Below, in pieces: positions 11,372 to 62,911 of a DNA stretch of 64,000 bases. The translations under genes were made by a program, and so were the position numbers. The DNA lies in IMG/VR virus record IMGVR_UViG_3300008113_011532; one strand, given 5' to 3'. The notes below the pieces were generated by a model. It did not search any database. It was not told where the DNA came from and saw only the letters and a program-made list of their open reading frames with translations. Origin of the DNA: an uncultured virus (IMG/VR IMGVR_UViG_3300008113_011532). Lineage: Duplodnaviria > Heunggongvirae > Uroviricota > Caudoviricetes. Position 1 is the stretch's first letter, and every line of letters starts with the position of its first letter.

Positions 11372-11740
11372 ATGACAAAGGAACAACTGATTGAGAAGAC
11401 GGTCGACAACGACCACGACTTCTTCTGGGACATCTACTGCGACTGCCCCGAAGATTTGAAGATGGAGGTCGTCTACGAGCAGAGCTACGGAGACGGAAAC
11501 GAGTACGTAATAGCAATGGAATTCCCCGAACACGACATCTTCGTGCAGTTAGAAGGGACATACTCGTCTTGGGACTCGCCATACTGGAGCAGAGTCGTAC
11601 TGGCAATGCCATACGAGTTCAAGGAGACGCGCTACAAAGAGGCGGACAAGCAGTACCTGAGGGAAAAGAGTCTGAACGAGGTGCTGGGCGACTTCATACC
11701 CGGCTTCGACGATAACACCGACAAACCAGCGGACGAATGA
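11372..11740 (+). CDS. Hypothetical protein with near-C-terminal tag
   Basis: GTYSSWD; LREKSLNEVLG. Confidence 0.75.
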   Translation: MTKEQLIEKTVDNDHDFFWDIYCDCPEDLKMEVVYEQSYGDGNEYVIAMEFPEHDIFVQLEGTYSSWDSPYWSRVVLAMPYEFKETRYKEADKQYLREKSLNEVLGDFIPGFDDNTDKPADE

Positions 11741-11967
11741 GGCTCTACCCGAAGAAGGACCACTGGCTGAACATACCTGGCCAGAAGAAGGTGAAGCTGC
11801 TTACGAAAGGTAAGCCTTACGAGGCGGTAGTGTGGGATATGCACGGAGTGATAGAGGTCGTCATGATTACGAACGACCAAGGAATAGAGCAGACGTTCTA
11901 CAACAAATCCGACTTTTTGAAGTCGGATTCGATGAGGTGCCAAAGGCTAAAGCAGCTCGGCATCTAA
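11737..11967 (+). CDS. C-tagged small protein (LTxGKxY family)
   Basis: LTKGKPYEA...ITNDQG...MRCQRLKQLGI*. Confidence 0.75.
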   Translation: MRLYPKKDHWLNIPGQKKVKLLTKGKPYEAVVWDMHGVIEVVMITNDQGIEQTFYNKSDFLKSDSMRCQRLKQLGI

Positions 11968-36034: not shown

Positions 36035-36056
36035 AGTCCGTTTTTAGACGGACTTT
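36033..36056. terminator. Bidirectional terminator
   Basis: AAAGTCCGT...ACGGACTTT between convergent genes. Confidence 0.7.
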
Positions 36057-37543
36057 TTTGTTGAATAAATCTCTTTACCCGACTCGGTCATCCTAACTGG
36101 GAATCCCCAGAGGTACTCGACGTAAGGAACAACCTTCTTCAGCTCGTTGTAGTCGAGACCCTTACCACACTCAGGCGTGTATTCCAGCGTCAAGGTTCTG
36201 TCGCCGTAGACGTCGACGTCATAAACCTGTATCTCAGGAACGTACCTGCTACGGTTGTAGTGCTCGGAAAGCGCCTGCCTGACCTTTCTGTAACCTGCCT
36301 CATTGTGTATCGCCGCCACCTCGTAATAAGTGTTCTCCGCGTTGTCGTCGATCCTAAATAGCCTCATATCCCTGATGACCTTCGGCGAAAGGTACTGCAG
36401 CACGAATGTCTCATCCTTGAAGTTCTCTACTATGTAGCGGAACTGCTCGATCCAATCGCCCTTTCCAGCAAGGTTAGGAAACCATTCAATGTCTTCCTTG
36501 GTAGGGTTCAGCGACATCCTCTTCAGATCCTGGAATATGTTGAAACCCAAAGTATAGGGATTCAGACCAGAGTAGAACTTGCTGTCGAAGGCCGGCTGGA
36601 ATATGACGTTCGAGTGGTGGTGGTAGAACTCGAGCATGAAGTCCTCCGCCAGCCAACCCTCCTCGTACATCCTGTTTATTATCTCGTAATGCGAGTGTGT
36701 GGCGCAGCCCTCGTTGATTACCTTCGTCTGCCCCTGCGGGTAGAAGTACTGTGCAGTCTTACGGACTATCCTGACAATCTCCCTCTGCCAACCGCGTAGC
36801 TTAGGAGAGTTCTTCTCGATGAAATAGAGAATGTTCTCTTCCGGCGACTCAGGAAACCTCTTATCGAGCAGCCTTTCCTTCTCCTCCTTCGGAACGGTCC
36901 TCCAGAGGTCGTTGAGAAGGATCCTGTCGTCCTCAAGTCTCTTCCTTAGCCTCTCCTGCTCCTCGGCCGCCGAGATACGGCGCGGCTTCTTGTACTTGTC
37001 GACGCCGTAGTTCATAAGGGCGTGGCAAGCGTCCAGAACCTGCTCCACTTCTTCAAAGCCGTACTTCTCCTCGCACTTGTGTATGTAGTCCCTGGCGAAG
37101 ACCATATAGTCGACTATAGAGTCCGCCTGCGTCCACTGCTTGAAGAGGTAGTTGTTCTTGAAGAAGTGGTTGTGACCCATCGCGGCATGCGCGAGAACGA
37201 GAGTCATAAGACACGTAGTGTTGTCCTCCATGTTGTACGATATGCAGGGATTCGAGTTTATGACTAGCTCGTAAGCAAGCCCCATCCTCCCCTTCTTATA
37301 GTTGTTCTGGTTCATCACGAAGTCCTTTCCAAACTTCCAGTGGTTGTACGAGATAGGAAGACCAATCAGCGAGTAGGCGTCGAGCATCTGCTCGGAAGTC
37401 GTTATCTCGAACTGGTTTGGGTATATGCTGAGGCCCAGCCACTCGGTGGCAATCCTCTCGATTATCTCGTTGGCAACCTCTATTGTCTCGTGATCCCAAT
37501 CCGACTTAGAGAACATCGCCCGTATCTTTTCCTTATCCATCAT
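36044..37543 (-). CDS. spoVR: SpoVR/YcgB family protein
   Basis: YNHWKFGK, AYELVINSNPCISY, AHAAMGHNHFFKNN, YFYPQGQTKVINEG, NPYTLGF. Confidence 0.95.
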   Translation of the reverse strand: MMDKEKIRAMFSKSDWDHETIEVANEIIERIATEWLGLSIYPNQFEITTSEQMLDAYSLIGLPISYNHWKFGKDFVMNQNNYKKGRMGLAYELVINSNPCISYNMEDNTTCLMTLVLAHAAMGHNHFFKNNYLFKQWTQADSIVDYMVFARDYIHKCEEKYGFEEVEQVLDACHALMNYGVDKYKKPRRISAAEEQERLRKRLEDDRILLNDLWRTVPKEEKERLLDKRFPESPEENILYFIEKNSPKLRGWQREIVRIVRKTAQYFYPQGQTKVINEGCATHSHYEIINRMYEEGWLAEDFMLEFYHHHSNVIFQPAFDSKFYSGLNPYTLGFNIFQDLKRMSLNPTKEDIEWFPNLAGKGDWIEQFRYIVENFKDETFVLQYLSPKVIRDMRLFRIDDNAENTYYEVAAIHNEAGYRKVRQALSEHYNRSRYVPEIQVYDVDVYGDRTLTLEYTPECGKGLDYNELKKVVPYVEYLWGFPVRMTESGKEIYSTKKSV

Positions 37544-38805
37544 GCCGTCTTCTTTTTGAAGAAGTCCTGAAATACCTTCCATATCTCACCGACTCCATTT
37601 ATCTTACCAATCTCGAAGTTTTTGTGCTTGCCCGAGACCCTCTTGTAGCTGGTCCAGAGGTCGCCCTCGTTGTTCCTGCATATCTCTATGTATATCATGT
37701 ACTGAACCCTCTGAAGTATGTCAGAGTCGAGTATCTTCGCACAGTCGAGCGCGTCGGTCCTGTCCCAGACGTCGCCGTCCGACGCCTGAGCGGCGTAGAC
37801 GTTCCAACCCTCGGAATACCTCTCCTTTATAATCTTGGCCATAAGCTCCAGTGCCGTAATCACGACCGTGCCGCCGGACTCCTTCGAGTTGAAGAACTCC
37901 TCCTCCGTGACCTCCTTCGCTGTGGTGTGGTGCCTGATGAAGACCATCTCGATCCTCTCGTACTGCTTGGTCAAGAACATATAAAGAAGCATGAAGAACC
38001 TCTTAGCGATGTCCTTCTCCTTCTCACCCATCGAACCGGAGACGTCCATCACGCAGAACATCACCGCTGACGTGCTAGGAACGGGTATCTTCTCGAAGTT
38101 GTTGTACTGAAGGTCGACCTCCTCCATAAAGGAGACAGACATCTTCATCTTCCTCAGCTTGTCAAGCTCCTTCTCGAGCTCGGCGATAACAACATCGTCG
38201 GTCTCTGTCTTCAGCTTCTCCTCTATCTCCTTTATCTTCTTGTCGAAGAAGAGGCCAACCGCCATCCTCCTCGCCATTGAGTTCTTGTAGGAACGAGTGA
38301 CGTTCAGCCTGCTAGGGTTTCCGTAGTTCGAGTAGCCAGCGCGCTTCTGCTTGAAGTCTACAACAGAGTTCAAGTGCTTCTTCACCATATCGGGAAGCTC
38401 CAAGTCCGCGAAGAAGTAGTCCAGGAACTCCTCCCTGCTTATGGAAACCGTGAACTCGTCCTCGGTTACCGAAGGGTCGTTCGAACCCTTACCCTGGCCG
38501 CTTCCGCCACCTCCTCCACCCTTGGGCTTCTTGATGAGGTCGCCCTCGTCGTACTCCTTGTTACCAGGATGCACCCAGTGCTTCTCGCCAGTGTCCTTGT
38601 CGTAGGTGAACTGCGGCTCGCCTATACCTTTAACGGGTATCTTCACTCTTTCCTTTGAGGAAGTCAGATCCTTGACGTTCGTGCCCTTCACGATGTCCGG
38701 CAGGGCCTTCTTTATCTGGCCGTCAATCCTTTTGAGGAGTCTCTGCCTGTTCTCCGAGGACTTGCCTTTCGGACTCTTCCTCCTGTCCACTATGTTTATC
38801 GACAT
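37540..38805 (-). CDS. yeaH: YeaH/YhbH (DUF444) vWA-domain protein
   Basis: IVDRR, HPGNKEY, AVMFCVMDVSGSM MIDAS motif, FIRHHT, ESGGT, QASDGD. Confidence 0.95.
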   Translation of the reverse strand: MSINIVDRRKSPKGKSSENRQRLLKRIDGQIKKALPDIVKGTNVKDLTSSKERVKIPVKGIGEPQFTYDKDTGEKHWVHPGNKEYDEGDLIKKPKGGGGGGSGQGKGSNDPSVTEDEFTVSISREEFLDYFFADLELPDMVKKHLNSVVDFKQKRAGYSNYGNPSRLNVTRSYKNSMARRMAVGLFFDKKIKEIEEKLKTETDDVVIAELEKELDKLRKMKMSVSFMEEVDLQYNNFEKIPVPSTSAVMFCVMDVSGSMGEKEKDIAKRFFMLLYMFLTKQYERIEMVFIRHHTTAKEVTEEEFFNSKESGGTVVITALELMAKIIKERYSEGWNVYAAQASDGDVWDRTDALDCAKILDSDILQRVQYMIYIEICRNNEGDLWTSYKRVSGKHKNFEIGKINGVGEIWKVFQDFFKKKTA

Positions 38806-38926
38806 GTTCTAGTAAATTTTTGTTAGGCTTCGGCCTCCAGATCGCTATGTCCCAAAGCGACGCTATGCGCCACTTCCGTATAAACCTCTTGTTTGTGAAT
38901 AGGTAGTGCGGAAGCGGCATGGCGTC

Positions 38927-40846
38927 TTAGTTAGATTTCCTCACCCTCAGGTACCAGTCGGTCAAAAGCTTGATCTGACGAGTTGTGTAACCCCTATCCT
39001 TCATCCTGTTTATGAACTCAGAATGCTTCTTCTCGTCGTCCTTAGTGGCTTTGGTGGTGAAAGATATGACAGGAATGATGTCCTCGGTCTTAGAGAATAT
39101 CCTCTTCTCGATGACGTTCCTTATCTTCTCGTAAGAGTCCCATGTTGGAGCCTCACCAGCTCTCGCCCTATGCCTGAGGTAGAACTGAACGACGTCGTTC
39201 CTGAAGTCCTTAGGGTTAGCGATGCCCGCAGGCTTCTCAATCTTCTCGAGCTCCTCGTTGAGGGCGGCGCGGTCGAACTGCTGACCGGTCTCAGGATCGC
39301 GGTAGTCGTTGTCCTGGCACCAATGGTCAGCATACGTGATGTACCTCTCGAAGAGGTTCTGTCCGTACTCCTGGTAGGAGTCGACGTAAGCCTTCTGTAT
39401 CTCCTCACCGATGAACTCAGCGTACTTGGCGCTAATCTTAGACTTGAGTATGTTCAAGTAGTAGTCCTCGGTCTCCTTCGCCAGCTGAAGCTTGACAATC
39501 TCCTGCTCGAGCACGTAGAAAAGGTGAACCGGGTTAGCCGCGACCTCCTCGGAGTCGTGGTTGAAAACCTTCGACAGAACCTTGAAGGCGAAACGCGTAG
39601 AGATACCGTTCATACCCTCTGTGATACCAGCGTCGTCCTTGTACTCCTGAAGCGACTTCGCCTTAGGGTCGGACTCCTTCAGTGACTCGCCGTTATAGAT
39701 CCTCATCTTAGAGTAAAGATTGGAGTTCTCCGGGCTTTTAAGCCTCGTCATAACGCAGAACTTCGCGAGAAGGTCCAAAGTCTGAGGGGCACAAGGCGCA
39801 CCAGACAGAGACGAGTGCTTCAGAAGCTTTCCGTAGATCTCGACCTCCTCGTCGACGCGTAGGCAGTAAGGAACTCTCACGATGTAGACCCTGTCAAGGA
39901 ATGCCTCGTTCTTCTTATCGTTCGAGAAAGTCTCCCACTCGGACTCGTTGGAGTGAGCCAGAATGATTCCTTGGAAAGGAATGGCCGGAAGGTTCTCGGT
40001 GCCGTTGAAGTTGCCCTCCTGGGTAGCAGTCAACAAAGGATGGAGCACCTTTATAGGCGCCTTGAACATCTCTACGAACTCCATCATACCCTGGTTTGAA
40101 CGGCAAAGCGAGCCCGAGTAGTTGTAAGCGTCGGCGTCGTTCTGCGGGTACTCCGCGAGCTTCCTGATGTCGACCTTACCTACAAGCGCACTGATGTCCT
40201 GGTTGTTCTCGTCGCCAGGCTCGGTCTTCGCAATACCGATCTGAGAAGCTATTGAAAGCTTCATCTTCCTGACCTTGAACTTGGTCACGTCACCGCCGAA
40301 CTCGGCAAGCCTCTTGGTCGCCCACGGCGACGCGCAGGAAGGCACGTACCTCTTAGGTATGCCGTACTCAGCCTCGAGCTCCTCCCTGTGTGACGCGAAC
40401 AATCCGAGCGGGTTCTCGAAAACTGGAGACACCTCACCGTCCGCCACAAGTACGTAAACGGTGCTCTTCTCCATAAGCTGCTTCAGCCTCTCAGCGAGTG
40501 ATGACTTACCGCCACCAACCGGACCGAGAAGGTAAAGTATCTGCTTCTTCTCCTCGAGGCCCTGCGCCGCGTGCTTGAAGAACGAAACTATCTGCTCGAT
40601 GGTCTCCTCCATGCCATAAAACTCGGCGAACGACGGATATCTCTTGATAAGCTTGTTGGAGTAGATCCTACTCAGCCTCTCGTCCAACTTGGTGTCGACC
40701 ACCTCCGGCTGACCTATGGCATCAAGCATCCTCTCAGCAGGGCTGGAATAAGCCTTCTCGCTCTTGCAAAGCTCCAGGTACTCGACCAGTGTGAGGTCCT
40801 TGCCACCCTGGCTGAACTCCTTCTTGATTGCGGTTAGTAAACTCAT
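38927..40846 (-). CDS. prkA: PrkA/YeaG AAA+ serine kinase family protein
   Basis: LLGPVGGGKSSLAE, EPGDENNQDISALVGKVD, EFVEMFKAPIKVLHPLLTATQE, AHSNESEW, GISTRF. Confidence 0.97.
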   Translation of the reverse strand: MSLLTAIKKEFSQGGKDLTLVEYLELCKSEKAYSSPAERMLDAIGQPEVVDTKLDERLSRIYSNKLIKRYPSFAEFYGMEETIEQIVSFFKHAAQGLEEKKQILYLLGPVGGGKSSLAERLKQLMEKSTVYVLVADGEVSPVFENPLGLFASHREELEAEYGIPKRYVPSCASPWATKRLAEFGGDVTKFKVRKMKLSIASQIGIAKTEPGDENNQDISALVGKVDIRKLAEYPQNDADAYNYSGSLCRSNQGMMEFVEMFKAPIKVLHPLLTATQEGNFNGTENLPAIPFQGIILAHSNESEWETFSNDKKNEAFLDRVYIVRVPYCLRVDEEVEIYGKLLKHSSLSGAPCAPQTLDLLAKFCVMTRLKSPENSNLYSKMRIYNGESLKESDPKAKSLQEYKDDAGITEGMNGISTRFAFKVLSKVFNHDSEEVAANPVHLFYVLEQEIVKLQLAKETEDYYLNILKSKISAKYAEFIGEEIQKAYVDSYQEYGQNLFERYITYADHWCQDNDYRDPETGQQFDRAALNEELEKIEKPAGIANPKDFRNDVVQFYLRHRARAGEAPTWDSYEKIRNVIEKRIFSKTEDIIPVISFTTKATKDDEKKHSEFINRMKDRGYTTRQIKLLTDWYLRVRKSN

Positions 40847-47606: not shown

Positions 47607-47963
47607 ATGTACAAAGGAAAGATGCTATACACGACACACCCGAAGGACTACAAGACCAACTCGAACGACATACACCTGGGCGTCTACGGGATATTCCACA
47701 CCGAGAAGGTGCTCTGGACGTACCACGTAATATCCTACTACAACAAGGCCAACGGCAGCATGCAGCTCACAGACGACATCTGCGGAAGGTACCTCGACGC
47801 GACATACGACAGCGTGAAATCCTACGGCAAGAGATTCGACACCGTCGAGGACGGCCGCAAGTTCATCGAGGAGTACAAGGTGAAGTGGGAGACAGGGTCA
47901 AACAACACCGCGCAGGAGATTAGAGACAAGAAGATAGACGAACTACTAGACGAGGATCAATGA
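47607..47963 (+). CDS. C-tagged hypothetical protein
   Basis: Ends IRDKKIDELLDEDQ. Confidence 0.75.
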   Translation: MYKGKMLYTTHPKDYKTNSNDIHLGVYGIFHTEKVLWTYHVISYYNKANGSMQLTDDICGRYLDATYDSVKSYGKRFDTVEDGRKFIEEYKVKWETGSNNTAQEIRDKKIDELLDEDQ

Positions 47964-48319
47964 GCACGTTCGGAAAGAGGGCGCTGAAGAAGTGGGACTA
48001 CAACGCCGACAAGTTCCAGGCGAACAGGTTCAACAAGTCCCCGAAGGAGATACAGCTCGCCATACTCGAGAAGTGGTACCCTATCGGCATGACCTGCGAG
48101 AGGAAGGACTACTTCGGAAAATGGGAAGCGGGATACACCATAACGGGCTACTCGGAGCACCTGACATACTACACCGTCGAGACGCGCCGGGAATGGCTCA
48201 TCGTCAACATGAAGTCTGTACAGGAAGGAACTTTCCCACCGCTGGCGCTGAAGCCGGACCAAAACTGGCTGAAGGTACAGAGACGTGACGACAAACTCAA
48301 CAAGCTTGGCATAGATTAG
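47960..48319 (+). CDS. C-tagged hypothetical protein
   Basis: Ends RRDDKLNKLGID. Confidence 0.8.
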   Translation: MSTFGKRALKKWDYNADKFQANRFNKSPKEIQLAILEKWYPIGMTCERKDYFGKWEAGYTITGYSEHLTYYTVETRREWLIVNMKSVQEGTFPPLALKPDQNWLKVQRRDDKLNKLGID

Positions 48320-50703: not shown

Positions 50704-51063
50704 ATGGACTCGAAACAAAGAATAGAAAGATGGGACTGCGTGGCGGTCGTATGCACGGCACCTTTCGAGGGCCTTCAAAAAGGATACACATACAGGGTAA
50801 ACGGATCCGGCTGGCTCGACAACAACTCGGCCACCGAAAAGAAGGGCTGGGGAGTATGCCTGGAGGACGAATGGGTGGGCCTGATTGACGAAGACGGCAA
50901 ATTCATAAAAGGTGGCTGGAAGAAGATGAGAAACAAGCCTTACTCCGAAAGGGTGAGATGGGTCTACGCGACTCTGCAAGAGCTAGAAGAGCACTTCATA
51001 ACAGACCAAGAGAACTACGAGATACACGTGAGAGACGAAAGGCTAAAATCGCTGGGCATATGA
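50704..51063 (+). CDS. C-tagged hypothetical protein
   Basis: LQKGYTYRV; ends VRDERLKSLGI. Confidence 0.8.
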   Translation: MDSKQRIERWDCVAVVCTAPFEGLQKGYTYRVNGSGWLDNNSATEKKGWGVCLEDEWVGLIDEDGKFIKGGWKKMRNKPYSERVRWVYATLQELEEHFITDQENYEIHVRDERLKSLGI

Positions 51064-51323
51064 AAGTGGTCTGCGCGAACCTGGGAGAGGATTTGGGATA
51101 CGAAACCCACAACGAGGCGATTACAATCGGAAAGACGTACCATGTCCATTCACAATGGCAGACATACGATTTAATTCGTTTGAAGGATGGACGTGCAACC
51201 GTAGAGAACGTCATATTGTATTCGATAATCAACGACGAAGGCAAAAGCGTAAAATACAACAAGAGGCTCTTCGTTAACCGCGATGAATGGAGGAATAAAA
51301 GAATAAACGAGCTAGGAATATGA
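51060..51323 (+). CDS. C-tagged small protein (LTxGKxY family)
   Basis: MKVVC...ITIGKTYHV...IINDEG...WRNKRINELGI. Confidence 0.8.
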   Translation: MKVVCANLGEDLGYETHNEAITIGKTYHVHSQWQTYDLIRLKDGRATVENVILYSIINDEGKSVKYNKRLFVNRDEWRNKRINELGI

Positions 51324-51574
51324 GAGTGATGTGCATAAAGAACGAGGACGTAATGCGCATCTTCGGCACCCTTCCGCTCACACCAGGAAAGGTGTAAGAG
51401 GTAATCGCCTTTATGGAAATACCGTTCTCCGCGAACAGACCACTCGACTCCAGAGACACCGTTTACACCGTGATCAACGACGAGGGCGAGGCGAGAATCT
51501 ACTCTGCCGACATACTCAGAAGGCTCAGCAAGCAAGAGGAAAGAGAGCTAAGGCTTAAAAAGATAGGGATATAA
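51320..51574 (+). pseudogene. C-tagged LTxGKxY family gene with in-frame TAA at 51395-51397
   Basis: MRVMC...LTPGKV*EV...VINDEG...ERELRLKKIGI*; the stop replaces the conserved Tyr. Confidence 0.8.
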
Positions 51575-51607
51575 TCACTATATTTAGAACAACCAAAACC
51601 AAACGAC

Positions 51608-52039
51608 ATGAAGATTGACGGACAAAGACTACTATCGTCGCAAGACGCGCACCCGCTGAAGATGCAGACATGGATTGTCTCATTCTCGACAGACGAGGCA
51701 GAGGACCAAGCAGACGTGTTCGGCGTCAGGCTAGCGGACATACCGAAAAGGCCAAACGCAATAAAAGGCGAGCCGGATCTCGTCTCGTGCAAGATCACCT
51801 TCATACTCGATATGAAAAAAGAAGCGATAACGTTCGAGAGGCTACAGTTCGGATGCGACGTATACGGCGAGAACCCGGTCGCGGAGGCGGACGATGAGAA
51901 GATAGGCCAATGGCTACCGATGAAGAAGATAGCGTTCAGGAAATACGAGATAAACGAGGAGCTGGTCGAGGGCACATACCCGAGGAACGCCATCGTCGAC
52001 GCGCTCAAGCAGACAATGTTCAAATCTGGCAGACTATGA
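51608..52039 (+). CDS. Hypothetical protein
   Basis: 143-aa ORF. Confidence 0.75.
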   Translation: MKIDGQRLLSSQDAHPLKMQTWIVSFSTDEAEDQADVFGVRLADIPKRPNAIKGEPDLVSCKITFILDMKKEAITFERLQFGCDVYGENPVAEADDEKIGQWLPMKKIAFRKYEINEELVEGTYPRNAIVDALKQTMFKSGRL

Positions 52040-52413
52040 GATACAACGACAGGAACTTCTCAAAGTTCCAGGAAAGGCAGAGGAACGGAGACGAACTGGA
52101 AAACTGGTTAAGAGTAAGCGAGAGAAAGATACGAAGGGAAAGAGACCACAGGCACGCCACCTTCTACATGCAGTGCCTCACCAAATTCTTCGAGAAGGAA
52201 TGGTGGCTGGCGCTCGAGACGAGGGACAAAGAGCAAGTGTACACATCTTACTACAACCAGGAGGAGATGCGGAAGGAGGAAGACGATGCACATATGTGGT
52301 CAAACTTCGAGTGGTTCGACACATGGGACGAGTGGAGGCAGCACATCCTCGACACGGTAAAGCCAAACAAGGCAAAGCTAAGAGAGCTCAGGGTCAAGAA
52401 GCTGGGACTTTAA
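52036..52413 (+). CDS. C-tagged hypothetical protein
   Basis: Ends LRELRVKKLGL. Confidence 0.8.
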   Translation: MRYNDRNFSKFQERQRNGDELENWLRVSERKIRRERDHRHATFYMQCLTKFFEKEWWLALETRDKEQVYTSYYNQEEMRKEEDDAHMWSNFEWFDTWDEWRQHILDTVKPNKAKLRELRVKKLGL

Positions 52414-52443
52414 ACTTCGTTCGAAACCTGCCGTATAAAAAGC

Positions 52444-53178
52444 ATGAACACAGAAGACAAACTCAAGGCGATCTGTAACTATAGTCACAAAGATATGGCT
52501 ACACCGTCAGCGCAGATGATAAGTTACATAGACTTCGAGACATACGACACACAGAAGAAGAAACAAGCCAAGCGAAACCTGCTCATAAACGAGCTACTGG
52601 ACATCGAGGAGGAGAGTAACTACTCCGATTCAGAAATAAATCTGGACTCGAAGTATGATGTTACTGCACCGAAGGTGATGCAAACAGCCGTACAAGGTAA
52701 CAGACACACATCAGTAGACTACGGAAAGGATCTACTACTCAATGACGTAATAACAAAGTTGGTCACGGACACCACAACGCCGGACCCGATGTTACCGAAA
52801 CTCACGCTTAGCACCGACGACACAAAGCCACACTTCGAGAACATGCAGACTATGGCTAGACGGATTATTACACGAATAATGCACGCCAACAACAAGATTG
52901 CAATAGAAGGAAGAATAGGTCCAGGTAATGCAATACTACTATCACCAAAGACCGAATTCGATTTACAAAATGTGGACATCGACCAGTATATGACCGGATT
53001 TACGATAACCAGAGTAGTAGACCAAAGGATACCAGACGGAAGGATAATAGTTTGCCGTGGCGGAAATCCGACAGATGCAGGCCTTATAGCTATGACAACA
53101 CAGACTTACTCATATATGCACGCAACAGACAAATACCTGTCACAGTATGCTTGGTTCGAAATAGATTTACAATACTGA
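52444..53178 (+). CDS. Hypothetical protein with internal tag-like helix
   Basis: KRNLLINELLD; NKIAIEGRIGPGN. Confidence 0.75.
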   Translation: MNTEDKLKAICNYSHKDMATPSAQMISYIDFETYDTQKKKQAKRNLLINELLDIEEESNYSDSEINLDSKYDVTAPKVMQTAVQGNRHTSVDYGKDLLLNDVITKLVTDTTTPDPMLPKLTLSTDDTKPHFENMQTMARRIITRIMHANNKIAIEGRIGPGNAILLSPKTEFDLQNVDIDQYMTGFTITRVVDQRIPDGRIIVCRGGNPTDAGLIAMTTQTYSYMHATDKYLSQYAWFEIDLQY

Positions 53179-53201
53179 CAAACAAATAAACAAAATATTA
53201 G

Positions 53202-54071
53202 ATGGAACAAAGTAGACCAATCAACGTACTTTCACTATTCGACGGAATGTCGTGTGGACAGATTGCAATCAACAAACTCGGAATAAAATACGACAACTAC
53301 TTCGCGTCAGAGATTGACAAATGGGCAATGCAGATAACGAAGAAGAACTACCCGAACACGATCCACATCGGAGACGTAAGGGACGTCAAAGGAGAAGACC
53401 TTCCCCAGATAGACCTTCTGATTGGTGGAAGTCCGTGTCAATCTTTCTCGAACGCCGGTAACGGAAAAGGATTCGAGGGTAAGAGTGGAATCTTCTGGGA
53501 GTACGTCAGGCTGCTCAAAGAGGTCAAGCCTAAGTACTTCATGCTCGAGAACGTCAGGATGAAGAAGGAGTGGCAGGACGTCATCACGGAGGCGCTCGGC
53601 GTCGAGCCCATCATGATAAACTCTAGCCTCGTGAGCGCGCAGAACCGCCCGAGGTTCTACTGGACCAACATACCGGGCATAACGCAGCCTGAGGACAAAG
53701 GGCTCGTTACGCGCGACGTTCTCGAGAAGGACGAGGACGTAGACCCGGCTTACCAGCTCACGCCAACGGCGTACGCGTACATGGACCGCGAGAGGAACGG
53801 CAAGTCGAGGTGGAACTACCACAAGAACCCGCTCGACGGAAAGGCGGCGTGCGTCGTCGCAGGATACGCAAAGATGGCGGGCTTCGCTGTACTCGACTAC
53901 AGAAACCTCGGAAAGCCGTGCAGAAGACTGACGCCGAGGGAATGCGAGAGACTTCAGACCGTGCCAGACGACTACACGGAAGGCGTGTCAAAGACGCAAC
54001 GCTATTTGATGATCGGCAACGGATGGACCGTCGACGTCATCGCGCACATTCTATCACATATGGAACTATGA
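53202..54071 (+). CDS. Orphan DNA (cytosine-5)-methyltransferase
   Basis: LSLFDGMSCG, GGSPCQ, MLENV, SAQNRPRFYW, ECERLQT, GNGWTV. Confidence 0.93.
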   Translation: MEQSRPINVLSLFDGMSCGQIAINKLGIKYDNYFASEIDKWAMQITKKNYPNTIHIGDVRDVKGEDLPQIDLLIGGSPCQSFSNAGNGKGFEGKSGIFWEYVRLLKEVKPKYFMLENVRMKKEWQDVITEALGVEPIMINSSLVSAQNRPRFYWTNIPGITQPEDKGLVTRDVLEKDEDVDPAYQLTPTAYAYMDRERNGKSRWNYHKNPLDGKAACVVAGYAKMAGFAVLDYRNLGKPCRRLTPRECERLQTVPDDYTEGVSKTQRYLMIGNGWTVDVIAHILSHMEL

Positions 54072-54244
54072 CAGAAGACGACGAAAACATGAGAGAGGCC
54101 GAGAAGTGGTTCGAAGACTATATGGAACTCGCGGGCCACACAAACCCTACGATAAGAGACGCCTTCATAACCGGTTGGAACCAACACAGAGCGAAGTGCA
54201 AGAACCTTTACTCGATGGAGGATATAAAGAATATAATAAACTAA
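54068..54244 (+). CDS. Hypothetical protein
   Basis: 58 aa, ATGA-coupled, AFITGW. Confidence 0.65.
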   Translation: MTEDDENMREAEKWFEDYMELAGHTNPTIRDAFITGWNQHRAKCKNLYSMEDIKNIIN

Positions 54245-54254
54245 AAAGAACAAC

Positions 54255-54794
54255 ATGGCAAATTACTGTTCATTCAGCACAGACATCAGCGGCGCGCCAG
54301 AAAAGCTGGCAGAGCTCTACAAAAGACTAGGCGAAGACGGAAGGATCGGATACGACGACTACAACAAGATCTTCGACGAGGCCGCACCTGAGGGATTCGA
54401 GTGGGGAACCAAATGGGTCGAGTACAGCGTAAGCTACGACGAAGGCCACGATTGGATGTCAATCACCGGAGACACGGCATGGTATCCGGCGTCAGGACTT
54501 TGGCAGAGGATATCCGAGAAGTACGAAACATCGGTCGAAACTACTTACTCCGAGCCTGGAGGAGACTTCGCTGGTAGAGACGAGTGGGAAAACGGCGAGA
54601 AGACGTTCAGCGAGGAGACAACCTACAACGAGCACCTCTACTACAACGACAACGAGTACTTCTGGGACAACATCACCAACGACTGCGCAGACCTAGAGCT
54701 TGACGAGGTGATTGACGGTCTCGGCGAGCTCTACGAAAAGATGAGCGACAACGAGAAGCAAAGACTCGCAGAGATACACGAAAGAGAGAACTAG
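54255..54794 (+). CDS. YubB/DUF1281-like ferredoxin-fold protein
   Basis: MANYC, WGTKW, DTAWYP, YSEPGGDFAG. Confidence 0.75.
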   Translation: MANYCSFSTDISGAPEKLAELYKRLGEDGRIGYDDYNKIFDEAAPEGFEWGTKWVEYSVSYDEGHDWMSITGDTAWYPASGLWQRISEKYETSVETTYSEPGGDFAGRDEWENGEKTFSEETTYNEHLYYNDNEYFWDNITNDCADLELDEVIDGLGELYEKMSDNEKQRLAEIHEREN

Positions 54795-54823
54795 AAAAGG
54801 CAGTCGAAAGACTGCCTTTTTTT
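54795..54823 (+). terminator. Intrinsic terminator
   Basis: AAAAGGCAGTC-GAAA-GACTGCCTTTTTTT. Confidence 0.85.
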
Positions 54824-54896
54824 GTTCAACTGAACTGAGTGTTCATTGTCACTGAACGCCTTCGTAAACTGAACGCGAGGAGTTAATATATAAGTG

Positions 54897-55514
54897 ATGA
54901 GATACGTATTGACCTTCGAGAAGTTCGACAAAGTCGCCTTCCACGGATACCAGATGACGCCGCAGGACATGCGCCTGCCCGACTGCGAAGTGGAATGGAA
55001 AGGGCCCGACCAAGAGACCGGGTGTCCGATGTTCTCGAACGAGAAGAGGATAACACAGGAGGATCTCGAGAAGGCAATCACTTTCCTTAACGAGGAAGAC
55101 GTAAGGACAATCATAGGATACTCAAGAGGCGGCGCGATACTTCTGAGCGCACTCGCCAGCGGCGCGAGGATACCAGAAGAGATTTATCTCGTAGCACCGG
55201 CGTGGGCAAGGCAGTGGGCCGACATAAAGCCGATGCCTATAAGAAAGAAGGGCTGCATAATACACGGCGGGCTTGACGACAAGGTTCCGTTGAGGCACTC
55301 CGCCATCCTGGCCAAGTCGACAGGGCTGCCGCTGTACGTATTTCCTGACCGCAACCACGTCAACATACTCAAGCACAAAGACGACACGACCGGCGGAATA
55401 ATGGTGAACCACCTAGACGAGGCAATCTCTAGCCTTCCCGACTGGGGCAAGTCCGACACCGGAAGCAAGGAGCAGATCAAGCAGCAACGAGACTGGTGCT
55501 CGCGGCTGGGCTAG
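54897..55514 (+). CDS. N-tagged alpha/beta hydrolase
   Basis: MRYVLTFEKF; FHGY, GYSRGG, IHGGLDDKVP, RNH. Confidence 0.85.
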   Translation: MRYVLTFEKFDKVAFHGYQMTPQDMRLPDCEVEWKGPDQETGCPMFSNEKRITQEDLEKAITFLNEEDVRTIIGYSRGGAILLSALASGARIPEEIYLVAPAWARQWADIKPMPIRKKGCIIHGGLDDKVPLRHSAILAKSTGLPLYVFPDRNHVNILKHKDDTTGGIMVNHLDEAISSLPDWGKSDTGSKEQIKQQRDWCSRLG

Positions 55515-55560
55515 ATCCCGAGCTCTTCCAGCTTGCCTTTCCTGTTCATGGACTTTGTCT

Positions 55561-55806
55561 TCAGTTATTCATTTCAGATTCTATTGTGTTTGCCCCACCA
55601 TGAGAATAACAAGCCAATGTTTCTTCACGTTCAAAATCCTTTGCAGTTACTTGCTCACATTCTTCTAATGATTTGCAAAGTTTTGAATCTCCATTAATAG
55701 TAACTACAAACCCTCTTTTAGTTTGTGTTCCATTTGAGTTTAAAAACATCATGCCAGCCCCAAGTTGCTTAGAGTTGTATTCTTTTACTGTTTGGATAGT
55801 TTTCAT
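55561..55806 (-). CDS. AT-rich hypothetical protein
   Basis: MKTIQTVKEY...; TATATTCG upstream on the minus strand. Confidence 0.65.
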   Translation of the reverse strand: MKTIQTVKEYNSKQLGAGMMFLNSNGTQTKRGFVVTINGDSKLCKSLEECEQVTAKDFEREETLACYSHGGANTIESEMNN

Positions 55807-55878
55807 AACCTTTATTTTTGTTTTTTTTCGACGAATATAACAAAAATACCGCAGAAACATATAAAGAACAAAGCTAAT

Positions 55879-56112
55879 ATGGCAAAAAACATGGCGAACA
55901 CCTTCATTCCACCCGGACAGGCAACCATTGGTAATATCCAACCCGACGCGATAGTAGCCAACGGCAAGTGCGTCCTCGGAAACCTCGTGCTCCACGACAG
56001 GAAGACCGGCAAGGAGTGGGAGATATTCATAGAGGACGGCGTCATCTACGCCGAGCCATGGGACAAGGAAGAGCGCCGCGACCACCGCATCGGTAAAGTG
56101 CTTGGTGAATAG
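55879..56112 (+). CDS. C-tagged hypothetical protein
   Basis: Ends RRDHRIGKVLGE. Confidence 0.7.
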   Translation: MAKNMANTFIPPGQATIGNIQPDAIVANGKCVLGNLVLHDRKTGKEWEIFIEDGVIYAEPWDKEERRDHRIGKVLGE

Positions 56113-56148
56113 GATTTCTTTCGCTACCTTCGTAGAAAATATACTATT

Positions 56149-56622
56149 ATGAACGACGTCGAAGAAATCTACCAGTGCCTTCTCGAGAAGACATACCAGG
56201 ACGCTATCCAGCTTGACATACTAATATCGAAAGTCTCCGACAGAGACCTCATACTCGGCTTCTTGGTCGACCTGGCGATCAGGCACGAGGAGTACGAGTC
56301 GGACGAGGAGACAATAAAAGCCGCGATCGCGAACCTCACCGACAGCGACGGATTGGATCCCGTCTACGCCACCGAGTGCCACACGAGGTACATAGATCTT
56401 CTAAAGACGAAGAACGAGGAGAGCTTGGAGATAAACAAATTCTCAATCGACACGCTATTCCTACTACTCGCGGAGGACACAGAAGGATACGAGACGACCG
56501 TCAACGCCTGCAACAACACCAAGGCACTTGATAAGCTCAAGGAGCAGCTGCTGGACGCCGAGGTCTACGAGAACATCGCGATAATCGACAAAAGAATAAA
56601 AGAGATAGAAGATGGACGATAA
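56149..56622 (+). CDS. Hypothetical protein with UVR-like C-terminus
   Basis: LKEQLLDAEVYENIAIIDKRIKEIE. Confidence 0.7.
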   Translation: MNDVEEIYQCLLEKTYQDAIQLDILISKVSDRDLILGFLVDLAIRHEEYESDEETIKAAIANLTDSDGLDPVYATECHTRYIDLLKTKNEESLEINKFSIDTLFLLLAEDTEGYETTVNACNNTKALDKLKEQLLDAEVYENIAIIDKRIKEIEDGR

Positions 56623-56818
56623 GAAGTTCAGGCAGGCGCTAGACGAGATATCGGCGGGCCTGCTCACCGTAAAGTACACAGGCGACGCGTCGGACATCGG
56701 CAACGAGTTCGGCATACTAATCGGAAAGTTCCTCGACGGCGAGATGGGCTGGGACAAAGACGCGGTCATATCCGGCGTCAAGCACGGCATCTCACTAACC
56801 GACGGTACTCATGGATAG
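56612..56818 (+). CDS. Hypothetical protein
   Basis: GDASDIGNEFG...GVKHGISLTDGTHG. Confidence 0.7.
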   Translation: MDDKKFRQALDEISAGLLTVKYTGDASDIGNEFGILIGKFLDGEMGWDKDAVISGVKHGISLTDGTHG

Positions 56819-57092
56819 CCTTCAGAAGGAGGCGCTGATGCGCAGCGCACAACAGATAATCGACGAGAATACAGCATTCGGTGGCAGCATCGTGACCGAC
56901 GCCACGCCACAAGGGAATCACGAAAAGGCTTTCGACAAAATGGGAAAGACCGACATAGTATGGGCGAACGTCTGGATCAATAACGAGGCACAACCCCACG
57001 ATTATGCCATAACCGGCTGGAGATACCTGAAGAACCTGAACGAATTGATTAAAGAGCACCGCGAGGAAAGAATGAAAGAGCTAGGGATATGA
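56811..57092 (+). CDS. C-tagged hypothetical protein
   Basis: Ends HREERMKELGI. Confidence 0.8.
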   Translation: MDSLQKEALMRSAQQIIDENTAFGGSIVTDATPQGNHEKAFDKMGKTDIVWANVWINNEAQPHDYAITGWRYLKNLNELIKEHREERMKELGI

Positions 57093-57430
57093 TGGAAATC
57101 ATGGAAGTACTTAAAGTAAAGTTTTTAAAGCCTGGTGATTATATATCAACTGCCGGCGAAGAAATTATAGAGCGAGATATTGATTTTGAATATTTATTGA
57201 AAATAATCAGTGATATAGAAACTCAAAAAGCTGGCTTTGGCAAAAGCCTACACAAGGAAGCTTTTACAGGAGTAGACTATCTTGGCAATTTAGTTAAGTT
57301 TTCTTCTTATGTTATTTGGACAGATAATAATAAAATCTATAAGTATAACTTTGATGAAAATTGGATGCCCTTTGATGATGAGTTACTAAGAAGAAATAGA
57401 GAAGAACGGCTTAAAGTGCTAGGGATATGA
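57089..57430 (+). CDS. C-tagged AT-rich hypothetical protein
   Basis: Ends NREERLKVLGI. Confidence 0.8.
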   Translation: MMEIMEVLKVKFLKPGDYISTAGEEIIERDIDFEYLLKIISDIETQKAGFGKSLHKEAFTGVDYLGNLVKFSSYVIWTDNNKIYKYNFDENWMPFDDELLRRNREERLKVLGI

Positions 57431-57666
57431 ACGAGACGATGATATCGAAGCACGACATGATTGACGTCGACGGGGTCTGGCTGCTTAAGGCCGGAAGGAC
57501 ATACGAGACATCGGACTGCCCGACAACACACACACCCAACCTTGAGATAGGACCAAAACTCGTCATCGTCACCTGCGAGGACGGCAAAGACAGGATACGA
57601 CAAAAATCGGACTTCAAGCACATTTACGAGCACAGAGAAGAAAGGCTTAAGGAGATTGGAATATGA
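57427..57666 (+). CDS. C-tagged small protein (LTxGKxY-like)
   Basis: LKAGRTYET; ends HREERLKEIGI. Confidence 0.8.
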   Translation: MNETMISKHDMIDVDGVWLLKAGRTYETSDCPTTHTPNLEIGPKLVIVTCEDGKDRIRQKSDFKHIYEHREERLKEIGI

Positions 57667-57950
57667 TTAAAAAGAGGGAACAAGGTTCGTATTATCATAG
57701 TCTGATGACAAAAGATATGCAAGAGGAATGGCTACAGGAATTCAATAGGTCATATCATGTGAAACAGGGAACAAGTTTAGAAACATTTTTTACTTGGTGG
57801 CGTCATGACTTCCAAGATTTCATTTCGGGCTCGTTTAACTGGAATGAGAAGAAGAGAGGAATCGAATGGTGGGAAGACTATGCCAATACCGACGAATCTA
57901 CAATATTGGCATGGAAGAGAGATGAAACGTTAAAAAATCTCGGAATATGA
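57663..57950 (+). CDS. C-tagged AT-rich hypothetical protein
   Basis: ISGSFNW...GIEWW; ends KRDETLKNLGI. Confidence 0.8.
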   Translation: MIKKREQGSYYHSLMTKDMQEEWLQEFNRSYHVKQGTSLETFFTWWRHDFQDFISGSFNWNEKKRGIEWWEDYANTDESTILAWKRDETLKNLGI

Positions 57951-57985
57951 GAAAAGAACAAACAATCGATGTACTAGGAATATGA
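57947..57985 (+). CDS. 12-aa tag-only mini-ORF MRKEQTIDVLGI
   Basis: ATGA overlap at both ends, exactly bridging its neighbours. Confidence 0.6.
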   Translation: MRKEQTIDVLGI

Positions 57986-58266
57986 AACACATACTTAACC
58001 TCATACGAAACAGCGCCATCTACATCACAATCACGAACCTGGTGGATGTATACCGAGCAGCGACACACAGGCACGACTGGGTGTACTCGAGCCAAGAAGA
58101 GGAAATAGCCTTTGGAAACCAGAGACACCGTATAAAGCTGAACTTCAAAACAAGATACTGTAATAAGTGCGGCACAAAGGAAAGAAAAATACGCGAGACT
58201 TGGGCTCCGTGCTCACTCACAAAAGAAGAGCAAAGAGACAAGAAACTTAGTGACCTGGGCATATGA
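57982..58266 (+). CDS. C-tagged His/Cys zinc-ribbon protein
   Basis: HRHDW...RYCNKCG; ends QRDKKLSDLGI. Confidence 0.8.
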   Translation: MKHILNLIRNSAIYITITNLVDVYRAATHRHDWVYSSQEEEIAFGNQRHRIKLNFKTRYCNKCGTKERKIRETWAPCSLTKEEQRDKKLSDLGI

Positions 58267-58282
58267 CCAGGTTTTTTTGTGG

Positions 58283-58603
58283 CTAGATGCCGAGCTCGTC
58301 GAGCTTCCTGTCCCTCTCCTCGGTCAAGACCCACAGCATAGACTCGTGACCGGCCTCTGCCTCCTCCCAGGTGCAGTACCTCTGCTGAAGACCGTCGCGC
58401 GGACCGCCGAAGACCATCGTCTCGAAAAGTATAGGCCTGCCAAGCTCGTCACTGCCGTGCTCCATCGCGAGGAAGACCGTAGACAACTCCACGCCGTTGT
58501 GCTTAGCACGGCCTACGCTCAATCCCATATATTTGGAAAGGACCGCAAAGTCATCGCACGGCACTGCCCGCCTTTCATCGTCCAGTTTGTAGTAGCCAAT
58601 CAT
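58283..58603 (-). CDS. C-tagged conserved phage protein
   Basis: STVFL...PILFETMVFGG...QRYCTWEEAEAGH; ends ERDRKLDELGI; TACATTTG 4 nt upstream. Confidence 0.85.
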   Translation of the reverse strand: MIGYYKLDDERRAVPCDDFAVLSKYMGLSVGRAKHNGVELSTVFLAMEHGSDELGRPILFETMVFGGPRDGLQQRYCTWEEAEAGHESMLWVLTEERDRKLDELGI

Positions 58604-61681: not shown

Positions 61682-62098
61682 ATGGACAAGGAAAGACTAG
61701 AACAGATGATGCTCAGGCTGCAGATGGCAGTGATTGAGATTGGAAGAGGCGAAGGCTTCGACATAAGACTATCGGAACCCGATCAACTATTCTCGGGAAG
61801 CCAGAACACACTCATCGCCAAGATGACAATCACCGAGACAAAACCGGAAGACCACATAGCCAACGAAGCGCTTTGCAGGAAGGTCGGCTTCACACAGAAC
61901 GTAATCGGCCAGTCGTTCACGCAGAACGGATCGCTCTACCGTATCGTCAACATAAAGACCAGGAACAGAAAGTACCCCGTGATCGCCTCTTCCAGACTGG
62001 GAGGGCTGTACAAGTTCTCCGTCGCGACCGTGAAGAGGAACCTCGGCGGCGACCAGCTCATAAACAGAAACGCGAACCTAGACAAACTCATATCATGA
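61682..62098 (+). CDS. C-tagged hypothetical protein
   Basis: KTRNRKYPVI; ends NRNANLDKLIS. Confidence 0.75.
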   Translation: MDKERLEQMMLRLQMAVIEIGRGEGFDIRLSEPDQLFSGSQNTLIAKMTITETKPEDHIANEALCRKVGFTQNVIGQSFTQNGSLYRIVNIKTRNRKYPVIASSRLGGLYKFSVATVKRNLGGDQLINRNANLDKLIS

Positions 62099-62541
62099 CA
62101 ATAGCAATAGTGGCGCTCGCGCTGACGACGCTCATATTCGGTATCTACATCATACACCTACACTCGAAGCTGTCGGACGCGATAGCGGACAAGAACAACG
62201 CAGAGACGCTCACGGCAGCGATGAAGAAAAAGACGACCGTCGAGGTGTCGCCAGGCGACACGGGACTAATACACAACTACGAACTTCAACACAATGGGAA
62301 GGATGGAGAAAAGTATGTATTTAGTGTAGACTTCGAGGTGAGCATAATCGAGATATCCGAGAAGCGACTCAAGGTGAGCGCCATCGACTACACGACCAAC
62401 GACGCATGGGCGAAGGACTCTACAAAGAGGCAGGGGATAATCAACTTCTTCCAGAACCAATGGGTTAAAAGAGACGAGGTAGAGATAATCTTCGACGACA
62501 GGAAGCGCAGGAACGACAAACTAAACGAACTTGGAATATGA
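62095..62541 (+). CDS. C-tagged membrane-anchored protein
   Basis: N-terminal TM helix; ends RRNDKLNELGI. Confidence 0.8.
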   Translation: MTIAIVALALTTLIFGIYIIHLHSKLSDAIADKNNAETLTAAMKKKTTVEVSPGDTGLIHNYELQHNGKDGEKYVFSVDFEVSIIEISEKRLKVSAIDYTTNDAWAKDSTKRQGIINFFQNQWVKRDEVEIIFDDRKRRNDKLNELGI

Positions 62542-62911
62542 TAGTTCCAACGTTCGAGGAGTTCGCACGCGACATCGGGATGCACCGCAAGGATGCGATA
62601 AAGCGCGAAATCCGCGAGATGAAGATAAACATACTCGAGGGCAAGTACATGTGCACCGACGCTTACTCTATACCCGAAAAGCCGATGATGTGGGAACCCT
62701 GCCCCACGGCAGGTCCACGGCGTGCGGGTGCGGCGACAGCCGGTACGACCACCACTCGATACACGCTGAGAGTGTCATGTCCGTAGTCGAGAGGTGCGGC
62801 GGCTCCGCGATGGAATACGAAACCGACGAGCTCAGGAAGAACTGGAACGAGTGGACGAAGACCAGAAAGGCCGTGACACACCAGTCGCTAAGGCAACAAG
62901 GAAAGTGGTAG
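62538..62911 (+). pseudogene. Frameshifted Cys-rich hypothetical gene
   Basis: Coding-like frame to WEPCP (about 62705), then continues in another frame as GRSTACGCG...HAESVMSV...NWNEW to the stop at 62911. Confidence 0.6.

Follow-up and report, generated by a model that had tools for sequence, protein, structure and literature searches.

A dual-coding joint at the ends of tagged small genes, and cassette turnover around it, in a fragment of a huge phage genome

Integrons have an adjacent IntI tyrosine recombinase, an attI site, attC elements that are imperfect inverted repeats folding as hairpins, and a Pc promoter. In lambdoid phages the mosaic boundaries lie at gene borders, as in the 'linker' or boundary-sequence idea, and the ATGA overlap of stop and start codons with its translational coupling is widespread in bacteria and phages. 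Modular shuffling at promoter-early stem-loops (PeSLs) in T4-type phages, with mini-circles, was reportedly described by Comeau et al. in 2014. Here we describe a 64,000-nt stretch of DNA from an uncultured virus (IMG/VR record IMGVR_UViG_3300008113_011532), called the window throughout, in which small genes close with a common ten-residue C-terminal peptide, the tag. The last codons of the tag can contain, in the sequence ATATGA, both the stop codon of one gene and the start codon of the next, and we term this overlap together with the tag the joint. Tagged genes, or cassettes, are grouped in array 1, starting at 50704, and array 2 (56811-58266). Comparison with a relative supports the turnover of whole cassettes at tags.

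The closest analogue is PeSL shuffling. In the T4-type phages, which are large and lytic, copies of that short motif flank small non-essential genes of the plastic regions, relatives differ by insertions, deletions and replacements that map to it, and no dedicated integrase takes part (Arbiol et al. 2010, PMC2839356). The PeSL itself is an intergenic sigma70-like promoter with a terminator hairpin, and its mini-circles have been physically demonstrated (PMC2839356). The arrays of the window are similar in that a short motif stands at the borders of small genes, that endpoints fall at the motif, and that no dedicated integrase was found. They are unlike it in that the genes overlap by 4 nt and leave no intergenic space, and in that the repeat is coding, comprising a C-terminal peptide with an overlapping stop and start. 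Nor is there a consensus hairpin, since analysis of 24 joints from three genomes with RNAalifold gave 0 predicted pairs and no common RNA structure. Circles, physically shown for PeSLs, are a proposal here.

With integrons the arrays have in common a compact run of mostly co-oriented, unrelated small genes that carry the same short 3' joint and vary in content, with individual cassettes turning up in different arrays. In contrast to integrons, no IntI-type integrase was found nearby; Pfam revealed no integrase or nuclease domain in 18 proteins encoded between 47.9 and 64 kb, and PHROGs no integrase or recombinase in 29 long open reading frames (ORFs) of the window. There is no attC-like folded inverted repeat in the 24 joints, the joint is translated, and the genes would be read by translational overlap rather than from a single Pc promoter. 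As in the lambdoid mosaics, the unit of exchange is a single gene with the joint at its end; the difference lies in a conserved dual-coding element of 30 nt carried by >100 genes in at least four genomes. The four-base overlap of stop and start is that of any ATGA junction, and 17 of 87 untagged window genes also end in this way, compared with 8 of 11 tagged genes. In the tagged genes, unlike in the plain overlap, the peptide's final residue (Ile as ATA) sets these four bases, and they are kept where no gene follows. Literature on PeSLs, on Mahaphages and on C-terminal motifs of the small proteins of huge phages contained no description of the tag or joint; subscription journals and supplements lay outside this coverage, so that the absence of a published description does not prove novelty.

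The tag peptide and its carriers

Within the window 13 small ORFs terminate in R-[DEN]-x-[RK]-L-x-x-[LI]-G-I, including one LGL variant and one with an extra Asp, and there are two tag-only remnants (57947-57985 on the plus strand and 55511-55564 on the minus strand). Among the six-frame ORFs of the window the core motif was counted 13 times, 12 of them exactly at the C-terminus, and in 50 triplet shuffles 0 times. The codons of the tag vary synonymously (Leu as CTA, CTG, CTC, CTT, TTA or TTG; Arg as AGA, AGG, CGC or CGG) with retention of the conserved residues, which indicates selection on the peptide. We also considered the tag as a mere RNA initiation region, and this was ruled out by the synonymous change with residues kept, and by tags that have no downstream gene.

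The window comes from a huge freshwater phage, and the phage families represented among its long ORFs are a DNA polymerase, C5 methyltransferases (two) and fibre-like proteins with a lectin fold. At 38927-40846 on the minus strand is a PrkA/YeaG-like kinase that has 82-83% identity to uncultured phage records of 642,428 and 634,780 bases, and 67% identity to a record of 636,363 bases. Genomes of 634, 636 and 642 kb belong to the Mahaphage clade, for which replication in Bacteroidetes is predicted (Al-Shayeb et al. 2020, PMC7162821). The host of the phage carrying the tag arrays is probably a member of the Bacteroidota. The GC content is 0.46-0.55 in the window and 0.27-0.31 in the sampled loci of the megaphage relatives. 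A 344-kb IMG/VR contig, G001 (CheckV completeness ~91%; GC 0.36-0.42 in the sampled loci), contains an array syntenic with array 2 (locus L025) and another tagged array (L020), the two being 28 kb apart. Four sequencing runs, X1, X4 and X6 among them, were compared as assembled contigs, and X1 may be the source sample of the window.

Of the three megaphage records, two were matched by a profile made from 12 window tags, with 18 and 13 matches, and one had no match. The matches in the 642-kb record lie at 4-20 kb and at 586-639 kb, and these two zones would be one region if the genome is circular, as is stated for the curated genomes (PMC7162821). A regular-expression scan found 32 tags in LR756502 (132 kb of loci sampled, all the tags lying within 90 kb of them), 13 in the sampled loci of LR745206, and 34 in 58.6 kb of G001. 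The record in which the profile had no match, the 636-kb megaphage LR756504.1, provides a natural negative control for tag-partner searches.

As a short helix of amphipathic character, the tag combines a hydrophobic stripe with invariant Arg, Asp/Asn and Lys/Arg positions. In an AlphaFold model of cassette A from array 2 the body is predicted with confidence (pLDDT about 80-92), and the tag forms a separate C-terminal helix (residues 98-110, pLDDT 49-64); a Foldseek search of the PDB with this model returned nothing at E <= 0.001. Cassette A has 86 homologues, across which the helix R-[DN]-R-[DE]-x-K-[LI]-x-x-[LI] persists down to about 42% identity. The GI-type tail is present in 18 of the 86, nearly all of them among the closest, and the remainder finish in IIK, IMR, IID, SII and similar. 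A looser form of the tag is found also on neighboring genes in the AT-rich contigs that bear cassette A homologues. Thus the core of the tag is old, and its final two residues are clade-specific. The LGL variant is found on both tagged genes of an AT-rich contig (L019, 202-1234, minus strand), at window position 52413 and at 9835 in L020, and neighboring small genes of G001 also bear the endings LGIE, LLD, ILK and VLK.

The bodies to which the tag is attached are diverse. When 105 tagged proteins were compared by BLASTP without their last 12 residues they fell into 77 body clusters, 64 of them singletons, although BLASTP is insensitive for short proteins and 77 is therefore an upper bound on unrelatedness. 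In array 2, even so, the bodies are clearly of different kinds. Pfam found nothing above the curated cut-off in 14 tagged proteins, PHROGs gave one weak match to the tagged proteins (E 0.004), and NCBIfam no match to 11 of them. The presence of one tag on many unrelated small proteins, in apparently accessory regions, suggests docking to a shared partner, for example in packaging, timed degradation or assembly, and the tag peptide may dock all its carriers to that single partner. A complex prediction for cassette A with cassette C scored 0.23 with the mark at 0.32, which is evidence neither way. The tag may have some likeness to basic-then-hydrophobic C-terminal protease recognition signals.

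The joint and cassette turnover in array 2

The pattern YTNGGNATATGA occurs eight times in the window, always on the plus strand, with an expectation of 0.09 from shuffles. The sites end at 51063, 51323, 57092, 57430, 57950, 57985, 58266 and 62541. ATA-TGA terminates 10 of the 13 tagged window ORFs, and at six of these ten ends the ATG within ATATGA starts an ORF of 79-113 codons (51060, 57089, 57427, 57663, 57982 and 62538). The initial annotation had placed coupled starts at these positions, and at each the gene opened by the ATG looks real; its site at 57663 (ATTGGAATATGA, with Ile for Leu) stands even though it falls outside the YTNGGNATATGA pattern. It had also listed 51320 and 57947, where less was found. 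The ATG at 51320 opens 25 codons before an in-frame stop, beyond which the frame continues into a tagged end, and that at 57947 opens a 12-codon ORF that consists of Met-Arg plus the tag only. The site ending at 58266 was missing from that list. There is no gene downstream of it; the ATG at 58263 opens nothing, and a convergent tagged gene comes next.

ATATGA is over-represented at tags in all four genomes. It is present at 9 of 15 tags and remnants in the window, at 19 of 34 in G001, at 17 of 32 in LR756502 and at 11 of 13 in LR745206, compared with 6-16% expected from background codon and stop use (P = 1e-4 to 5e-12). Background usage in the window is 54% ATA among Ile codons and 25-29% TGA among stops. 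The Gly codon of the tag is GGA or GGG in 24 of 34 and in 27 of 32 tags of two genomes, where the background is about 0.4. The excess of ATATGA and of GGR (R being a purine) indicates that the last three codons of the tag are under a constraint beyond that of the peptide. The simplest reading is that this constraint comes from the start of the next gene, perhaps plus a short purine-rich initiation signal. Predicted starts lie on the ATG of ATATGA in 11 of 12 aligned cassette C proteins, that of the window included, and in several cassette A homologues. The overlaps of 4 nt suggest that neighboring cassettes are translationally coupled. At three sites ATATGA is retained without a real downstream gene, and its persistence there suggests that the joint is inherited as a unit.

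Array 2 lies on the plus strand and begins with cassette F (56811-57092; tag ...REERMKELGI, ending in ATATGA), followed by cassettes A (57089-57430), B (57427-57666; ...REERLKEIGI) and C (57663-57950; ...RDETLKNLGI). Next comes the tag-only mini-ORF MRKEQTIDVLGI (57947-57985), which is located between two ATATGA joints, and then cassette D (57982-58266; ...RDKKLSDLGI), whose ATATGA has no following gene. Cassette E (58283-58603, minus strand; ...RDRKLDELGI, ending ATC TAG) is convergent with D. The stops of D and E are 16 nt apart (58261-58288, CCAGGTTTTTTTGTGG); in G001 the orthologue of 58283-58603 (in L027) converges on another tagged gene, with overlapping stop codons.

The composition of the array is mosaic. 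From 56811 to 58266 the third-position GC content (GC3), gene by gene, is 0.64, 0.26, 0.65, 0.41, 0.15 (the mini-ORF) and 0.55. In 52 long window ORFs its mean is 0.69 (sd 0.074) with a minimum of 0.49. Cassette A (GC 0.32, GC3 0.26) is thus far outside this range, as are cassette C and the mini-ORF (0.41 and 0.15), and the ORF 55561-55806 on the minus strand is outside it too (GC3 about 0.24, measured on 55561-55812). A two-breakpoint GC segmentation places an AT-rich stretch at 57067-57406, with its edges about 25 and 24 nt before the two stops, and therefore both inside tags; the tags are themselves A-rich, which may draw the left edge inward. Another AT-rich stretch by the same procedure, 55554-55892, has its start some 10 nt upstream of the remnant tag's core. 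The alternating composition proposed for 56811-58266, with switches close to the tags, is thus confirmed both gene by gene and by segmentation.

Locus L025 aligns with the window over 55818-57092 at 73% identity and then, directly after, over 57413-58264 at 89%. Cassette A is missing from L025, with F joined directly to B and the empty site reading CTGGGAATATGA, so that relative to G001 cassette A is an insertion. The additional 338 nt of the window is bordered on both sides by the 12-nt direct repeat CTAGGGATATGA (57081-57092 and 57419-57430, plus strand). With its preceding G this forms the longest common 3' run, 13 nt, among 91 tag pairs, and 12 nt is reached in three pairs. A copy of cassette A is present in G001 within the other LGI-tagged array (L020), with 88% identity over 368 nt (57063-57430), a match that begins within the upstream tag and continues to the point where the cassette's own tag ends. 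Beyond this, comparison of the whole window with L020 gave just two tag-sized matches, of 28 and 35 nt. In L020 too the cassette is an AT-rich island, with a GC of 0.28 and neighbors of 0.41-0.48.

Nucleotide identity to L025 changes in steps along the array, from 0.66 in the F body to 0.92 in the F tag, 0.935 in B, 0.992 in C, 1.0 in the mini-ORF (35 of 35 nt) and 0.776 in D, after which the sequences are unrelated. For cassettes B and C, the tags of the window and of G001 agree at 36 of 36 nt. Dense mismatches extend as far as 57052 and resume at 57994, and the near-identical tract is 408 nt in length with 2 mismatches, ending no more than 8 nt after the ATATGA at 57985. Synteny with L025 stops at the end of cassette D. 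The G001 blocks end at 58264 and restart at 58283, which are the two convergent tag ends, and they are about 70 kb apart in G001.

A replacement is seen at the remnant on the minus strand. The tag ...NRKGKLEELGI (55511-55564) no longer ends a full-length gene, and in loci L016 and L025 the sequence orthologous to it forms the 3' end of tagged genes of full length. Where these have the complete gene the window keeps the last ~17 codons, beside an unrelated AT-rich ORF of 81 amino acids (55561-55806, minus strand) that supplants the body of the tagged gene and is out of frame with the remnant tag. At the joint between F and B, an X1 contig of 1433 nt tracks the window over 55711-57093 and then diverges. 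The first codons of its diverging end resemble the cassette before a paralogue of B in G001, where B has paralogues elsewhere (~23 of 29 nt by eye, with 30 letters compared). We take this as a weak hint; if the resemblance holds, the F/B joint has three states, with A, empty, and X-like.

When window cassettes were set beside their homologues elsewhere, neither flank was related in 8 of 14 pairs. In a further relative (L018), with 76-77% protein identity around the methyltransferase, there are tagged genes that resemble the window cassettes in the tag alone. When the arrays were searched against 50,697 phage records by megablast and blastn the methyltransferase was the sole match. No match was obtained by tblastn of cassette A and of the AT-rich ORF 55564-55812 (minus strand) against the phage records, or in IMG/VR scans with two neighboring proteins. 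A strict degenerate tag pattern gave 0 matches, being too narrow and missing even the window's own tags, and a 15-base joint pattern gave at least 120 chance loci, with cassette A encoded at none among the matches listed.

The idea of a cassette-like array is in part borne out by these alignments. Array content differs between the relatives, one whole cassette, bounded exactly by two tags, being found at a site in one and missing there in the other; identity and GC change stepwise within tags or next to them; and the same cassette is found in different arrays of two genomes. The comparison with G001 supports cassette turnover at tags.

Recombination substrate or tolerated boundary

We envisage arrays of small accessory genes in which every gene would close with a portable ten-residue C-terminal helix tag. 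The sequence GGR-ATA-TGA would be used doubly, as Gly-Ile-stop and as a purine-rich GGR and an ATG for the next gene. The tag would then be a complete gene joint, because its last codons serve both genes, and since the same ~30-nt joint stands at each cassette end, recombination of one tag with another would give an intact tagged protein together with a coupled start. The ~30-nt joint recurs in many relatives, with GC from 0.28 to 0.50. Crossover could be guided by short homology or microhomology, between co-infecting relatives or by way of an excised tag-to-tag circle, and the outcome would be the insertion, loss, replacement or relocation of single genes without a dedicated integrase. We lean, with modest confidence, towards the view that tag plus ATATGA is a portable joint at which recombination between tags, guided by short homology or microhomology and possibly passing through circles, gives viable products. 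The DNA of the tag may be the substrate of the crossover rather than merely a tolerated place for a joint. A wider proposal is tentative. It holds that this is an integrase-free cassette system of a clade of huge Bacteroidota phages, with a dual-coding joint of ~30 nt, recombination between any two tags, a common docking partner, and exchange across 20 GC points; on that proposal the peptide would owe its clade-specific Gly-Ile ending to what the joint requires at the RNA level.

Of 13 endpoints mapped in array 2 and at the remnant, 12 lie in a tag or no more than 10 nt from its stop, and one is inside a body. The endpoints at 57053, 57063 and 57645, and the boundary between the window and L016 near 55554-55564, are 20-50 nt inside the upstream coding sequence, which favors a role for the tag. 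So does the geometry of the joint, since the genes overlap by four bases and a joint that keeps both reading frames must be exact. Adjacent tags have an identity of 0.63 and non-adjacent tags 0.57 in the window, with no difference in LR745206, and this does not settle the mechanism.

Several observations weigh against tag DNA as the substrate. The 13 endpoints are not independent, several of them concerning the joint at 57092, and the comparison of array 2 is based upon one close syntenic relative, G001. As the tags resemble one another, the ends of alignments tend to be drawn into them. The left edge of the near-identical tract, at 57539-57585, is inside the body of cassette B. Tag DNA has 57-65% identity over 33 nt, and most exact 3' runs measure 6-9 nt, the longest reaching 13-15; ordinary homologous recombination usually involves longer matches. 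Adjoining a tag but out of frame with it is the AT-rich replacement at 55554-55892, which bears no tag itself. In its 3' half the right tag of cassette A differs both from the tag at the empty site of L025 and from that of the cassette in L020, so that a simple single-crossover history fails. Elsewhere in the window blocks end at untagged gene starts (53202 and 61681) or inside genes (51957 and 62854), and there was no excised circle or tag-tag joint among the matches listed in the run contigs. The initial annotation had proposed that the tag sequence acts as recombination microhomology. The pattern of turnover that this predicts is present; the role of tag DNA as the substrate is something that we infer, in the face of short runs, one boundary inside a body and one out-of-frame replacement.

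Much of this would also be expected if ordinary mosaicism were combined with selection, where random illegitimate joints survive at gene ends, the tag is a protein motif, and ATATGA is a start overlap, the tag DNA playing no part as a substrate. In phages, even where there are no repeats, mosaic joints normally fall at gene boundaries, and because every tag is also a gene boundary, selection on random joints is not fully separable from joints guided by homology. The low identity and short exact runs of the tags, the boundary in a gene body, the out-of-frame AT-rich replacement beside a tag, the blocks that end at untagged gene boundaries and the selection on the peptide are all in keeping with such a process. 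Yet a random joint would have to be exact to the base to keep the 4-nt overlap, and the insert is bounded by a 12-nt direct repeat. The endpoints at 57053, 57063 and 57645 fall at the 5' edge of tags, 21-40 nt within the coding part of the gene upstream, and ATATGA is kept without a downstream gene (58266) and before a tag-only ORF (57950). We regard mosaicism with selection alone as the chief alternative, possible but less likely. The arrays might instead be tandem paralogues that arose by duplication and divergence, the tag being the conserved end of one old family. The bodies of array 1 have common motifs (...IINDEGK..., ...VINDEGE..., ...LIDEDGK...), L020 contains a run of MKIGD-type paralogues forming a cluster of 4, and the tag helix is retained to 42% identity in the cassette A family. 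Such a history is very unlikely, given the 77 body clusters and 64 singletons among the 105 tagged proteins (with the upper bound noted above), a GC3 that spans 0.26 to 0.76 between neighbors, and the same cassette occurring in different arrays with unrelated flanks and being present or absent at one joint.

The identical 12-nt repeats on the two sides of cassette A could alternatively be a target-site duplication, made by a site-specific enzyme (a homing nuclease, transposase or recombinase) that is encoded elsewhere in these genomes of 340-640 kb and recognizes GGNATATGA. The 3' end of the tag is indeed far more uniform than codon use predicts. However, no such domain was detected in the 18 neighboring proteins or 29 long ORFs (of the window only), the cassettes are unrelated small proteins without known domains, and in L020 the flanking 12-mers differ at 2 positions; we give such an enzyme only a marginal chance. 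Least probable of all is an artefact of metagenome assembly, in which contigs of co-occurring strains were joined through the repeated tags into false mosaics. Switching between strains by the assembler is conceivable at the tags of B and C, since window and G001 agree there at all 36 nt, and no contig of the four runs bridges 57092/57093 into cassette A among the matches listed. Against this, the repeat around A is 12-13 nt, below the usual assembly word size, and the joint of tag to A (GGGATATGATGGAAAT) is found also in an independent IMG/VR assembly. A 688-nt X1 contig spans 57451-58138 with 4 differences and includes both edges of the near-identical tract, with the proviso that X1 may be the source sample, and an X4 contig spans 58131-58458 across the convergent tags. 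Tag arrays are moreover present in curated complete genomes.

Other tagged genes, neighbors and implications

Array 1 comprises three cassettes on the plus strand. The first (50704-51063; ...RDERLKSLGI) ends in an ATATGA whose ATG opens the second (51060-51323; ...RNKRINELGI, also ATATGA), and the third (51320-51574; ...RELRLKKIGI) starts at the ATG of that ATATGA and ends ATA TAA. The in-frame stop of the third (51395-51397) may indicate a pseudogene, a sequencing error or a later gene start at 51413; this cassette is apparently paralogous to 51060-51323, with a common ...INDEG... motif. The remaining tagged genes are on the plus strand as well. An isolated one at 11737-11967 (...RCQRLKQLGI, ending ATC TAA) has a homologue of its body in LR756502 (L008, 11991-12212) with unrelated flanks. 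At 47924-48319 the gene has one residue beyond the tag (...RRDDKLNKLGID), and the gene with the LGL variant (52036-52413, ending TAA) has an ATGA overlap at its start with the untagged gene 51608-52039. A gene with a hydrophobic N-terminal stretch (62095-62541; ...RNDKLNELGI) has an orthologue at 3273-3716 of locus L028, and ends in an ATATGA whose ATG opens 62538-62786.

The last ORF encodes 82 amino acids, and its G001 homologue (L028, 3713-4117) encodes 134 and ends like the other frame of the window (...GKW). At 62705-62706 contigs of X1, X4 and X6 carry 37 identical extra letters. From the extra letters and the longer homologue, the window copy looks frameshifted, by a 37-nt deletion or an assembly gap. 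At 52050 and at 55461, contigs of three runs each fit the window only from that point on, with the same GC-rich unrelated sequence before it. Position 52050 is 11 nt past an ATGA joint, and the GC-rich ends may be variant contexts or other organisms. The gene 54255-54794, with a DUF1281_C ferredoxin-like domain, has two tandem copies in one metagenome relative (locus L017, 17-565 and 601-1143), with 79% and 59% identity to that of the window.

Three neighboring genes at 36044-40846 on the minus strand have strong PHROG matches, and apparently form a phage-borne PrkA/YeaG-type kinase operon. The 639-residue protein matches phrog_22605, and its tblastn matches in phage records are annotated as YeaG, serine kinase or AAA ATPase; the 421-residue protein matches phrog_19072 and a 'sporulation protein' PHROG, and the 512-residue protein phrog_35217. 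An operon of this type is found too in Ralstonia phage RsoM2USA and in Thermus phages.

Huge phages carry hundreds of small genes of unknown function, the gain and shuffling of which are largely unexplained. The signature described here would pick out plastic accessory genes of uncultured phages, with >100 members in the sampled loci. The comparisons also document gene flow between lake phage lineages of 0.28-0.50 GC. If the proposed role of the tag is correct, a joint that is coding, with peptide tag, stop and start in one, would meet in a new way the need that PeSLs and integrons serve, and it would tolerate or promote exchange at the resolution of a single gene. The ten-residue tag should lead to the shared partner, and hence to the function of the whole set.

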